Below are positions 4,585 to 10,775 of a stretch of 64,000 nt of DNA, piece after piece. The stretch lies in NCBI RefSeq assembly GCF_003334305.1, contig NZ_QOWS01000011.1; one strand, written 5' to 3'. A program made the translations under genes and the position numbers. The notes under the pieces are model-generated. The model ran no database searches and had not been told where the DNA came from. It worked only from the letters and a program-made list of their open reading frames with translations. Each line of letters begins with the position of its first letter. Position 1 is the first letter of the stretch. This stretch comes from Escherichia coli (GTDB lineage Bacteria; Pseudomonadota; Gammaproteobacteria; Enterobacterales; Enterobacteriaceae).

Positions 4585-5235
4585 TCAATGAGACATCATC
4601 TCCTCGACCACTTCTTTGCTACTCAACTGATATGGATAATACGTTGGCCAGTTTTCCATTTCATTCAATAAAGACTGTTGGGTATCATTACCCATAAAAA
4701 TGTGAAAATGAGATGATTTTCGTGGTGCAATTATATGATCGCTAAATTGAATATATTTAGGGGCTTTGCTTTCAGGATCTTTACATTCGAATAAGTAACG
4801 AACGCCTTTCTTGCCTGATTTATAGGTGAGTATTTTGTATCCATCGTAATCATATTTACAGGATGTTGTTTCATTATGTCTATGGAATTCAACAATGCCG
4901 TCCTCAATGCCAATCATCTCGATATCTGTCACATAACCTTTGCGATAATAATCTTTAATTTCAGCAAATGTTTTGGTTTTATCTGCATCCGCTTTCTTCT
5001 GAAAGACGGGGTCAAGTTTGCCACTTTGCAGTAAAGGATAAACGGATTGCCAGACTCCATCCCAGTCACTGAGCGTTCGGTTTTGTACATTGGTATCATC
5101 AAAAACACCATTAGCAGCTTTTTGTTCGACCTCTGTTAAGGGGTTGCCGTGTGAGTGATGACCATGCGAAAAGGCAGGAGCGCTAACAATAAAGACGCCT
5201 AAAGCAACAGCCAGTTTATGAAGACGAATCGCCAA
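4585..5235 (-). CDS. zinT: Periplasmic zinc/cadmium-binding protein ZinT (YodA)
   Basis: 216-aa ORF, signal peptide plus HGHHSHG metal-binding motif. Confidence 0.95.
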
Positions 5236-5491: not shown

Positions 5492-6127
5492 TTATAGAGA
5501 TAATTTGTTGTGAACCTGCTTGCGTAACTGGTTGAAAAGGGAAAGCAACTTCTTATACCGTAAGGCTAAAAGCAGTACCGCCAGCCCAGCGTAGATGAGT
5601 GGCTGCGGTGAAATAATCTTCACTGACCACAAATAATGTATTGGGGCCAGGATCGCGACAAGATAGACGAAGTTATGCAACTGTTGCCAGTGTTTGCCGA
5701 GTTTTCGCTGCATCGCCTGGGTTGAAGTGAACGCTAACGCAAGCAAAATTACCCAGCTGATAATACCTAACGTTAAATAAGGCCGGGTAATTAACTCCTT
5801 ACCTAATAACGCCAGATTATTCACGCCCAGCTCCAGCAATGCGTAACTGGTTAAATGCAGTGTCGCCCAGGCAAAGCACCATAAGCCTAACAGGCGGCGA
5901 GTGCGTATCAATAACGGCTGTTTTGCGTAGCGTGCCAGAGGTGTGATTAACAAGGTCGCCAGCAAAAATTTCAGTGCAGTGCGACCGGTAAAATGCTGAA
6001 TATCTTTCACCGGATCGGCACCCAGTCCACCGTGATTGATCGCCCAGGCCAGCCAGAGAAACGGCAACAATCCGGCAAGATGCAGGCAAACTTTCAGCCA
6101 TGTCACCTGTTTTGCTGTCAGACGCAT
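5492..6127 (-). CDS. msrQ: Methionine sulfoxide reductase haem-binding membrane subunit MsrQ (YedZ)
   Basis: 211-aa hydrophobic ORF, operon partner of msrP. Confidence 0.9.
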
Positions 6128-7138
<1,011 letters not shown>

Positions 7139-7240: not shown

Positions 7241-7654
7241 TTAACTGCCACGATAGGTTGAATACCCATATTGGCTAAGTAATAAAGGCACATGATAATG
7301 CTCGTTCACTTTATTAATATGAAATTCAACGGGGATCTCAGGGAAGAAACTTTCAAGATTTTGTTTCTTGAAATAGTCCCCGGTTTTAAATACGACACGG
7401 TAATCGCCCGTAGTTGCAGTTTGCTCGGGCCACAGTGCCTTAATTCGTCCATCCTTATCTGTTTTGGCGGTATTAAGTTGTAACCAGCCGTTATCCGCCT
7501 TCTTTTCAAGAGTGACTGTCACGTCAGCAGCGGGTTTTCCTGTTTGCTGGTTCAAAATGTGCACGCTAAGAATGTTTTGTTGTGCGGCATTAACCAAAGA
7601 AGGTAATGAAAATGCTGCCGTTGCTACCGAGAGTACTAAATAACGCTTTAACAT
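7241..7654 (-). CDS. hiuH: 5-hydroxyisourate hydrolase (transthyretin-like) HiuH (YedX)
   Basis: 137-aa ORF with signal peptide and C-terminal YRGS motif. Confidence 0.9.
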
Positions 7655-7723
7655 GTTTATATCCTTGTCATGTGAATGAGTTTTGAGGATAGCGAAAAAA
7701 CGTCCAGGGTAACCTTACAGCAG

Positions 7724-7741
7724 CATTACAATTTTGTAATG
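7724..7741. promoter_or_regulatory. HprR/CusR-type response-regulator box in the hiuH-hprR divergent promoter region
   Basis: Perfect palindrome CATTACAATTTTGTAATG. Confidence 0.6.
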
Positions 7742-7786
7742 AACCAGGCTGTTTCTATAACATATGATTTATGGCATATTATTTTC

Positions 7787-8458
7787 ATGAAGATTTTACT
7801 TATTGAAGATAATCAAAGGACCCAGGAGTGGGTAACGCAGGGGCTTTCCGAAGCGGGTTATGTCATCGATGCCGTTTCTGATGGCAGAGATGGGCTTTAT
7901 CTTGCGCTGAAGGATGATTATGCATTGATCATTCTGGATATTATGCTTCCGGGTATGGATGGCTGGCAGATCTTACAAACGTTAAGAACGGCAAAGCAAA
8001 CCCCTGTTATTTGCCTTACTGCAAGGGATTCTGTCGATGACAGAGTCAGAGGGTTGGACAGTGGAGCAAATGATTATCTGGTAAAACCTTTTTCATTTTC
8101 TGAGTTGCTGGCAAGGGTTCGGGCACAATTAAGGCAACATCACGCTTTGAATTCAACATTAGAAATCAGCGGCTTAAGAATGGACTCTGTTAGTCAAAGT
8201 GTGAGCAGGGACAATATCAGTATTACACTGACGCGCAAGGAGTTTCAGTTACTTTGGCTACTGGCCTCCAGAGCAGGCGAAATTATACCCAGAACGGTTA
8301 TTGCGAGTGAAATTTGGGGAATCAACTTTGATAGTGATACCAATACGGTGGACGTCGCCATTCGCAGGCTCCGCGCAAAAGTTGATGATCCTTTTCCTGA
8401 AAAGCTAATCGCCACAATCCGGGGGATGGGCTATTCATTCGTAGCGGTAAAAAAATAA
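7787..8458 (+). CDS. hprR: Two-component response regulator HprR (YedW)
   Basis: OmpR-family receiver and winged-helix domains; start taken at MKILLIEDN (223 aa) inside the longer track ORF. Confidence 0.9.
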   Translation: MKILLIEDNQRTQEWVTQGLSEAGYVIDAVSDGRDGLYLALKDDYALIILDIMLPGMDGWQILQTLRTAKQTPVICLTARDSVDDRVRGLDSGANDYLVKPFSFSELLARVRAQLRQHHALNSTLEISGLRMDSVSQSVSRDNISITLTRKEFQLLWLLASRAGEIIPRTVIASEIWGINFDSDTNTVDVAIRRLRAKVDDPFPEKLIATIRGMGYSFVAVKK

Positions 8459-9816
8459 TGAAAAGATTATCTATAACCGTCCGTTTAACCTTGCTTTTTA
8501 TATTGCTGCTGTCTGTTGCTGGCGCTGGAATTGTCTGGACTCTCTATAATGGCCTGGCAAGTGAGTTGAAATGGCGCGATGATACAACACTCATTAACCG
8601 GACAGCGCAGATCAAGCAGTTGTTAATTGATGGGGTAAATCCAGATACGTTACCTGTATACTTTAACCGGATGATGGATGTTAGCCAGGATATCTTGATC
8701 ATTCATGGTGATGGCATCAATAAAATTGTTAACCGGACAAATGTCAGTGATGACATGTTAAATAACATACCTGCTAGTGAGACAATCAGCGCAGCTGGCA
8801 TTTACAGAAGCATTATTAATGACACTGAGATTGATGCTTTACGAATTAATATTGATGAAGTTTCGCCATCATTAACGGTTACTGTGGCTAAATTGGCTTC
8901 AGCCAGACATAACATGCTTGAACAGTATAAAATCAATAGCATTATAATTTGCATTGTCGCCATTATACTGTGCTCAGTATTAAGTCCGCTGTTAATCCGA
9001 ACGGGGTTACGAGAGATCAAAAAGTTGAGTGGTGTAACGGAAGCGCTGAATTATAACGATAGCCGGGAGCCTGTTGAGGTTAGCGCATTACCGAGAGAAC
9101 TAAAACCTCTTGGGCAGGCGTTGAATAAAATGCATCATGCTTTAGTCAAAGATTTTGAGCGTCTAAGTCAGTTTGCTGACGATCTCGCTCATGAACTTAG
9201 AACGCCAATTAATGCATTACTGGGTCAGAATCAGGTTACGCTCAGTCAAACCAGAAGTATCGCTGAATATCAAAAAACAATTGCCGGTAACATTGAAGAG
9301 CTGGAAAATATTTCGCGGTTAACAGAGAACATACTGTTTCTTGCCAGGGCAGATAAAAACAATGTTTTGGTGAAACTGGACTCGCTTTCTCTCAATAAGG
9401 AAGTCGAAAATTTGTTGGACTATCTTGAATATCTTTCAGACGAGAAAGAGATTTGCTTTAATGTCGAGTGCAATCAGCAAATCTTTGCGGATAAAATTTT
9501 ACTGCAACGAATGTTATCGAATCTTATTGTTAATGCCATTAGATATTCACCAGAAAAATCGCGTATTCATATAACCAGTTTTCTTGATACCAACGGATCT
9601 CTTAATATTGATATCGCCAGCCCTGGAACGAAAATTAATGAGCCTGAAAAACTCTTCCGTAGATTTTGGCGGGGAGATAATTCGCGTCATTCCGTAGGTC
9701 AGGGACTAGGCCTTTCTTTAGTCAAAGCGATTGCCGAATTACATGGGGGAAGTGCTACGTATCACTATCTCAATAAGCATAATGTGTTCCGGATTACGTT
9801 GCCGCAAAGAAATTAA
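8458..9816 (+). CDS. hprS: Two-component sensor histidine kinase HprS (YedV)
   Basis: 452-aa ORF with two transmembrane segments, H-box HELRTPIN and ATPase domain; start overlaps the hprR stop. Confidence 0.9.
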   Translation: MKRLSITVRLTLLFILLLSVAGAGIVWTLYNGLASELKWRDDTTLINRTAQIKQLLIDGVNPDTLPVYFNRMMDVSQDILIIHGDGINKIVNRTNVSDDMLNNIPASETISAAGIYRSIINDTEIDALRINIDEVSPSLTVTVAKLASARHNMLEQYKINSIIICIVAIILCSVLSPLLIRTGLREIKKLSGVTEALNYNDSREPVEVSALPRELKPLGQALNKMHHALVKDFERLSQFADDLAHELRTPINALLGQNQVTLSQTRSIAEYQKTIAGNIEELENISRLTENILFLARADKNNVLVKLDSLSLNKEVENLLDYLEYLSDEKEICFNVECNQQIFADKILLQRMLSNLIVNAIRYSPEKSRIHITSFLDTNGSLNIDIASPGTKINEPEKLFRRFWRGDNSRHSVGQGLGLSLVKAIAELHGGSATYHYLNKHNVFRITLPQRN

Positions 9817-9923: not shown

Positions 9924-10775
9924 TTAACCCGCGTAAGCTGCCAGCATTTCCTGCGCCGCCAGTTTACCCAACGCATTCGCTGCGAAAGGACTGTCGCCGG
10001 TGAGAACTTTACGGTCCTTATGTACTCGCCCGGTGATGTCGTCATTAATAATGTTCATGCCCATTTTCTTCAGCTCTTCGCCGAAGTACCAGGTGAGATG
10101 ACCCGGCATATAGCCTATCTCTGGCGTTTGTTTGTCTGCGGCGTCTGGGAATGCGCAAATGGAATAACCATTCAGTGGGTTATCGCCGTGGCGAAGCGCC
10201 AGAAAAGCCGCCGGGCCGTGGCAAAGGGAGATAACAAAACGGTCATTTTTGATTGCCCACTGTAAAGCGGCAGCTACGTCCTGGCTTTCAGGTAAACCAA
10301 TAAGTGCGCCATGACCACCAGGAACAAAGATTGCTGCATATTCGCTATCAGCGTTGAGGCTGGCGACAACATCCGCGAGTTTCTTCGGATTGCGGAACAA
10401 CGATTTATGCTGCTCAAAGAATGGCATTACTTTTTCATCTTTGTGCGGCATAGCCCAGTATTCAAACTTGGTCAACAGGCCGGAAATGGTCGCCACTTCG
10501 AATTCGAAACCTGCAGCATGGAGATGATACAACGGCAGCAACGTTTCAATCGGATGGTTACCGGTCGAGAACAGTTTTCCGTTATCGGTCGGCAAATAAC
10601 GTTCGTCCGCGGCGATCACCAGAATTTTATGTTTACCGCGATACGGTTTTGGATAGTCCACGCCATCAAGATCAGAGACAGGACTGGTATATTGGCTAAG
10701 CGAATATTCTGAAGGGAAGAATGCATTATCTTCAGCAATATCGACCTGCGGATTTTTACTTGTTTGAACAGTCAT
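9924..10775 (-). CDS. hchA: Hsp31 chaperone / glyoxalase III
   Basis: 283-aa ORF, DJ-1/PfpI fold, matches remembered HchA. Confidence 0.95.
   Translation of the reverse strand: MTVQTSKNPQVDIAEDNAFFPSEYSLSQYTSPVSDLDGVDYPKPYRGKHKILVIAADERYLPTDNGKLFSTGNHPIETLLPLYHLHAAGFEFEVATISGLLTKFEYWAMPHKDEKVMPFFEQHKSLFRNPKKLADVVASLNADSEYAAIFVPGGHGALIGLPESQDVAAALQWAIKNDRFVISLCHGPAAFLALRHGDNPLNGYSICAFPDAADKQTPEIGYMPGHLTWYFGEELKKMGMNIINDDITGRVHKDRKVLTGDSPFAANALGKLAAQEMLAAYAG

Follow-up and report, generated by a model that had tools for sequence, protein, structure and literature searches.

The inverted repeat between hiuH and hprR in Escherichia coli: very probably the known HprR/CusR operator, and possibly part of a conserved tripartite unit

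What is the near-palindrome that lies between hiuH and hprR in Escherichia coli, and what might it do for the two divergent genes? The window, which here means the whole stretch of 64,000 nucleotides that was analysed, contains CATTACAATTTTGTAATG at 7724-7741, precisely where the original prediction had put it. There it was described as a perfect 18-bp palindrome, and this has to be amended: the reverse complement, CATTACAAAATTGTAATG, differs at the 2 central bases, and 16 of the 18 positions are self-complementary. What is present is a pair of perfect 8-bp arms, CATTACAA and TTGTAATG, around a 2-bp TT centre, with no outward extension of the arms. The sequence had also been assigned to the divergent promoter region of hprRS and hiuH-msrPQ, and it lies indeed inside the 132-bp hiuH/hprR spacer (7655-7786), 70-87 nt upstream of the hiuH ATG (7654) and 46-63 nt upstream of the hprR ATG; the identities proposed for the flanking genes are borne out by NCBIfam equivalog models and by the RefSeq annotation of identical loci. 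The features of the region are as follows.

4585-5235, minus strand: zinT, from the list of open reading frames
5492-6127, minus strand: msrQ (NCBIfam NF003831, 238 bits)
6128-7132, minus strand: msrP (NCBIfam NF003767, 508 bits)
7241-7654, minus strand: hiuH, 5-hydroxyisourate hydrolase (NCBIfam NF011610, 293.7 bits against a cutoff of 217; RefSeq annotation)
7686-7691, minus strand: TATCCT, putative -10 element of hiuH, placed by positional equivalence to orthologues, 22 nt downstream of the third half-site
7714-7720, minus strand: CTGTAAG, candidate third half-site, a direct repeat of the hiuH-proximal TTGTAAT with an 11-bp period
7724-7741, no strand: HprR(YedW)/CusR box (very probable), 18 bp, CATTACAA-TT-TTGTAATG on the plus strand and CATTACAAAATTGTAATG on the hiuH strand
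7725-7740, no strand: conserved 16-bp core ATTACAA-TT-TTGTAAT, a 7-2-7 inverted repeat (family consensus ATKACAA-NN-TTGTMAT)
7787-8458, plus strand: hprR (yedW), response regulator of the OmpR/PhoB family (NCBIfam equivalog NF008567, 483 bits against a cutoff of 353)
8458-9816, plus strand: hprS (yedV), cognate sensor kinase (NCBIfam TIGR01386, heavy-metal sensor kinase subfamily, 317 bits; hprS in RefSeq)
9924-10775, minus strand: hchA, from the list of open reading frames

On the left, hiuH is the first gene of the hiuH-msrP-msrQ operon (structure given in bioRxiv 10.1101/2021.09.09.459708), and on the right the true start of hprR is the ATG at 7787. A longer open reading frame of 260 aa (7676-8458, plus strand), which begins at ATG 7676 in frame with hprR and spans the box, is an N-terminal extension artefact of hprR.

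Can the symmetry itself tell us anything? Perfect 8+8 inverted repeats with spacers of 0-4 bp occur 24 times in the window, and those with a 2-bp spacer 3 times where roughly one is expected, so the bare inverted repeat at 7724-7741 is not beyond chance. Since inverted repeats of that size are not rare, symmetry alone is no evidence of function. What exceeds chance is the match to a regulator motif. The box agrees with ATKACAA-NN-TTGTMAT at 14/14 positions, and 3 Mb of composition-matched simulated sequence contained no 14/14 match to this consensus; CATTACAANNTTGTAATG is matched only once in the 64 kb even when up to 3 mismatches are allowed, the expectation being 0.35. The box also has the 6-4-6 (7-2-7) inverted repeat ATKACA-N4-TGTMAT of CusR/CopR/AgrR-type operators, a consensus taken from PMC7380067.

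How close is it, then, to an operator that is already known? The original prediction had gone only so far as to say that the sequence resembles the HprR/CusR box, and the comparison exceeds this, as CATTACAAAATTGTAATG is the published box letter for letter. The legend of Fig 1 in PMC9302797 and bioRxiv 10.1101/2021.09.09.459708 both give CATTACAAAATTGTAATG, citing Urano et al. 2015. The position agrees exactly as well: the published box occupies the divergent hiuH/hprR spacer, 87-70 bp upstream of where hiuH starts, and here as there the cognate neighbours, hprRS and hiuH-msrPQ, adjoin the box. With the K-12 YedW/HprR box, as far as the accounts quoted from Urano et al. (2015, 2017) describe it, the window shares the same 18 bases, the same position (-87 to -70) and the same flanking genes. 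Although the window comes from a non-K-12 E. coli, there is no difference from K-12 inside the box; single-nucleotide differences in the spacer fall outside it (7700 A/G). We therefore regard it as very probable that 7724-7741 is the HprR(YedW)/CusR operator of hiuH-msrPQ, with the protected region known to us through secondary citation. The operator is already known and functional, and confirming the box adds nothing new in itself. Genomic SELEX detected HprR in the hprRS/hiuH spacer and, with stronger binding, in that of cusRS/cusCFBA; HprR and CusR, which are 52% identical, use one recognition sequence with different affinities (PMC8249747 for both binding results). In O157:H7 the hiuH promoter is bound by HprR according to ChIP-seq, ChIP-qPCR and EMSA (PMC13064566), and copper induction of msrP requires CusSR (PMC9302797). 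Through this box the periplasmic methionine-sulfoxide repair system MsrPQ is controlled together with HiuH, both of which contribute to the survival of E. coli under hypochlorite and copper stress in the host; HprSR and CusSR are a textbook-style case of paralogous two-component systems acting on one operator.

Within the species the box hardly changes. The whole spacer matches that of strain FDAARGOS_497 at 100% identity and was found in 5413 of the 5426 complete genomes; of 5418 E. coli records, 5336 have exactly the same 33 nt at 7711-7743, a segment that takes in both the third site and the box. Spacer polymorphisms of the sampled strains, at 7700, 7707, 7749 and 7759, all lie outside the box. 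Beyond the species, a scan with HprR, limited to one genome per species, gave 15 orthologue loci in Enterobacterales (L008-L022). In each of the 15, the expected regulatory spacer contains exactly one motif match that scores 12/14 or better; a second such match anywhere in the locus is found in L019 only, and chance would give 0.13 matches per locus of 8.65 kb. Is it still conceivable that the box is an AT-rich inverted repeat that arose by chance and has no function? The two dozen or so 8+8 repeats with short spacers in the window are what such a reading can point to. It is refuted by the conservation and the published binding, as the sequence matches the published box exactly, recurs in the orthologous spacers of all 15 loci and hardly varies over about 5,400 genomes, in contrast to neighbouring bases; the probability left to it is negligible.

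The 15 loci show three gene arrangements. In the first, that of Escherichia, msrQP-hiuH is divergent from hprRS and the match lies in the hiuH/hprR spacer; in the second, seen in Pseudescherichia, Enterobacter, Pantoea, Erwinia, Kosakonia, Phytobacter and Shimwellia, hiuH is divergent from hprRS without msrPQ, and the match again lies in the hiuH/hprR spacer. The second arrangement fits the report on Salmonella, where CopRS adjoins hiuH and does not control msrP (PMC10083560). In the third (Proteus, Providencia, Morganella and Moellerella), hprRS is followed by msrPQ and hiuH is missing. The box of these Morganellaceae (L017-L022, about 6035-6050) is placed between hprS and msrP with perfect arms, ATGACAA..TTGTCAT, and the motif scan of the same six loci found no comparable box upstream of hprR, which suggests that hprR is not autoregulated through the box in this family. 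Because the Morganellaceae match precedes msrP and not hprR, the box tracks the target operon. As to the half-sites, ATTACAA/TTGTAAT is confined to E. coli and E. albertii, and most other lineages have the CusR-type ATGACAA/TTGTCAT.

Some minor points belong to these loci. In Morganella psychrotolerans the hprR frame (L022, 4001-4669) ends early, at 200 aa, with stop codons in the stretch where the rest of the full protein is expected, and a pseudogene or a sequencing frameshift is possible. The recognition helix of HprR (window region 8330-8380) reads ...RRLRAK where the sites have TGTAA, and ...RRLRRK or ...RRLRKK in lineages whose HprR has TGTCA sites only. Co-variation of recognition helix and half-site was considered and no conclusion is drawn from it: SilR (LRAK) and CusR (LRGK) use TGTCA sites, and phylogeny confounds the comparison.

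The fact that the two arms change together, with T/A in Escherichia and G/C in other genera, could also be expected if the repeat worked as RNA, for instance as a terminator, an attenuator or a processing site, rather than as DNA bound by a protein. A 7-bp stem with flanking pairs can indeed be drawn, with about -11 kcal/mol and a z of about -2 to -2.7. This hairpin is modest, however; it has no U-tract, nothing terminator-like is found at the repeat, and no Rfam family matches at E<=1, and on these grounds the RNA readings were rejected. On either strand the inferred -10 elements are downstream of the repeat, and several orthologues lose the complementarity of the arms with half-sites kept near consensus (ATGACAA..TGGTCAT, ATGACGA..TTGTAAT). 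A hairpin would also leave the direct-repeat third half-site unexplained, and direct protein binding has been published (PMC13064566, PMC8249747). We thus consider a role as RNA very improbable and return to the box as a protein-binding operator.

Is the 18-bp box the whole of this operator? When 17 promoters of hiuH, msrP and cusC were aligned without gaps on the strand of the target gene, a third half-site appeared at the same offset in 17 of 17, 5 nt from the end of the 16-bp core. Most of them have TGTCAG, three close relatives have TGACAG, cusC has TGTCAC and E. coli hiuH has TGTAAG. Most of the 17 have a -10-like hexamer 22 nt past it (TATAAC in most orthologues, TATCCT at E. coli hiuH, TAAAGT at cusC). 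The plasmid sil promoters give the same picture, with TGTCAC, 22 nt and TAAAGT at silC, and TGTCAT, 22 nt and TATAAT at silE. Information content over the 17 promoters is high at core positions 1-7 and 10-16 and lower just outside the core, and G23, C25, A26 and G27 of the third half-site reach 1.5-2.0 bits, comparable to the box; neither the stretch between box and third site nor the opposite flank shows conservation. No third half-site faces hprR, either in E. coli or in the orthologues; on the silR side there is TGTAAT at +6. CusR-like inverted repeats of relatives in Vibrio and Burkholderiales (L023-L026) have no third half-site at the same offset, which means that not all of the family has the tripartite layout.

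Such a layout is nevertheless a known design in the CusR/CopR/AgrR family. According to mutagenesis of AgrR operators, activation draws on the inverted repeat as well as on a direct repeat that lies in phase on the promoter-proximal side (PMC7380067), and CTGTAAG at 7714-7720, with its 11-bp period, corresponds by sequence to a direct repeat of this type. The box of AgrR in Cupriavidus metallidurans, ATKACANNNNTGTMAT with an in-phase direct repeat, has the same consensus and layout as hiuH, a type II activator position and positive autoregulation; it differs in serving another regulator in another organism, one that was active unphosphorylated in the mutant studied (PMC7380067). The direct repeat belongs to only some of the AgrR operators, whereas every enterobacterial target promoter examined here has it. 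The literature searched contains no mention of a third half-site at hiuH, its descriptions being of the 18-bp box only, and that of cus is mentioned there solely within a PhoB site. A conserved third half-site with a fixed spacing to the -10, common to hiuH, cusC, silC, silE and msrP, is the modest addition made here.

The cus operator offers the closest comparison. In a K-12-like genome the cusR/cusC box is AAAATGACAA-TT-TTGTCATTTT, with the same 7-2-7 design and the same TT centre as the hiuH box; the E. coli cus box, ATGACAATTTTGTCAT, differs from the latter by one base per half-site, and the CusR box of Yamamoto & Ishihama 2005, in the form quoted in PMC11195947, is AAAATGACAAnnTTGTCATTTT. 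Where cus has the half-site ATGACAA, hiuH has ATTACAA, and the third site shows the same change, TGTCAC against TGTAAG. Both boxes lie in a divergent spacer between regulator and target, the distance from the centre to the start codon being 80.5 nt at cusC and 78.5 nt at hiuH, and at cus too the third half-site is at +5 and is followed, after 22 nt, by a -10-like hexamer. AAA/TTT extensions set the cus box apart. Both CusR and HprR bind it, and HprR is reported to bind it more strongly than its own site (PMC8249747). A more distant relative is the palindrome of Pseudomonas CusR/CopR/CzcR, ATTCATnnATGTAAT, which also occupies a divergent spacer, is used by several paralogous OmpR-family regulators with different outputs and shares a GTAAT half-site with the hiuH box; its half-site sequence differs, however, and its targets are pco/cus copper resistance genes, not hiuH-msrPQ (PMC11195947).

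It is to be noted that the second and third sites of hiuH, taken by themselves, look like a Pho box (TGTCAT-N5-TGTCAY), both being TGTMA direct repeats phased by 11 bp, and that the hiuH operator has an extra inverted half-site. The Pho box lies about 10 bp from the -10, as against 22 nt at hiuH. At cusR/cusC, TGTCATTTTTCTGTCACC is bound by PhoB in ChIP-seq and cusC expression is PhoB-dependent (PMC10294691). This sequence (L007, 10523-10540) overlaps the CusR box and consists exactly of the proximal half-site and the third half-site, so that at cus a single composite operator would be contested, or used cooperatively, by CusR, HprR and PhoB. Does PhoB, or another regulator of the OmpR family, then chiefly use the hiuH site as well, with HprR being incidental? 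The resemblance to the Pho box and the binding of PhoB to the analogous cus site, with its effect on cusC (PMC10294691), speak for it. The hiuH site co-occurs with hprR orthologues across Enterobacterales, however, and HprR-dependent regulation has been published (bioRxiv 10.1101/2021.09.09.459708, PMC13064566). A text search of the PhoB ChIP-seq paper (PMC10294691), in which the cus site is listed, found no occurrence of hiuH, hprR or yedW. PhoB was rejected as the main regulator on the absence of the hiuH/hprR spacer from those ChIP-seq sites, and we see hardly any likelihood in this reading.

More serious is the thought that the direct repeat alone (TGTAAT-N5-TGTAAG) activates hiuH, bound head-to-tail as by PhoB, OmpR or KdpE, and that the distal half-site serves the divergent hprR only. 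Tandem direct repeats are what most regulators of the OmpR/PhoB family bind (discussion of PMC7380067), the equivalent direct repeat at cus is a bona fide PhoB site (PMC10294691), and the third site is conserved as much as the box. Against it, the distal half-site is perfectly conserved even at promoters without a divergent gene, such as msrP downstream of hprS in Morganellaceae and silE downstream of silS. Moreover, mutations in the inverted repeat of AgrR nearly abolish activation (PMC7380067), and mutations in the Pseudomonas palindrome abolish activation of both divergent operons. We consider this reading unlikely, though clearly less so than the others. The most far-reaching reading is that enterobacterial HprR/CusR/SilR operators are fixed tripartite units rather than simple palindromes, made of an inverted pair, a direct-repeat site 5 nt off and exactly 22 nt to the -10, and that the half-sites of Escherichia hiuH have jointly moved from TGTCA to TGTAA, which would weaken the operator and tune or insulate it in the cross-talk of HprR, CusR and PhoB; our confidence in this whole proposal is evenly balanced between yes and no. 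If functional, the third site and its spacing would refine how this family of regulators docks on promoters and would explain PhoB at the cus operator.

How might the site work at hiuH? Oxidants (HOCl, N-chlorotaurine or H2O2 according to the literature) activate HprS, and phosphorylated HprR binds the box, activates the leftward hiuH-msrP-msrQ and autoregulates the rightward hprRS; the paralogue CusR reads the same sequence and cross-regulates under copper stress. The oxidant, HprR and CusR steps have been shown by others, and to them we add by inference the tripartite unit for hiuH. Its functional parts would be the inverted half-sites at 7725-7731 and 7734-7740 and the third, direct-repeat site at 7714-7720. 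Judging from the position of the putative -10, the start of hiuH transcription would be near 7679 and the centre of the box near -53.5; a simple sigma-70 promoter scan of 7600-7850 returned no promoter. The third half-site would then lie at about -41 to -35, beside the very poor -35 of an activator-dependent promoter, and a bound regulator would therefore sit immediately upstream of the -35 or overlap it, from where it would recruit RNA polymerase. In E. coli each of the three half-sites contains TGTAA against the family optimum TGTCA, a departure which fits the reported weaker binding of HprR at its own spacer than at cus.

The hprR side has some peculiarities of its own. No Shine-Dalgarno sequence precedes hprR in any lineage with the divergent hiuH/hprR arrangement; hprR of Morganellaceae, cusR and silR have ordinary ones. 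A conserved extended -10-like motif TGnCAnAnT (TGGCATATT in E. coli; window 7772-7789, and about 3985-4003 in L008-L015) ends 6 nt before the hprR ATG in most cases. This position would put the start site at the A of the ATG, so the hprR mRNA may be leaderless. There is also a candidate alternative promoter for hprR, in which TTGTAA at 7734-7739, within the box, resembles a -35 and lies 16 nt from TATAAC (7756-7761); it is found in Escherichia only and not conserved in other genera, and O157:H7 has TATGAC in its place (7759 A>G).

Finally, natural variants have touched the spacer in several ways. EPEC O127:H6 (L089) carries C>A at 7721 and C>T at 7724, the latter being the outermost base of the 18-mer, and the 16-bp core is intact. 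In strain SY033 (L005, 2501-3911) an IS2 element of the IS3 family follows the box directly and has duplicated 5 bp of target, TAATG (window 7737-7741); the box remains with hiuH and hprR is about 1.3 kb away, and PGAP calls the truncated start of the 260-aa reading frame a partial 'hypothetical protein'. A second, independent IS2 is found in NT1W25 (L006, 1165-2500) at about 7700-7704 of the window, between the inferred hiuH -10 and the third half-site, and this insertion would be expected to cut hiuH-msrPQ off from control by HprR. Among the matches to the hiuH/hprR spacer in the E. coli genome collection, six or seven belong to records labelled as plasmids, and two copies occur in a few genomes.
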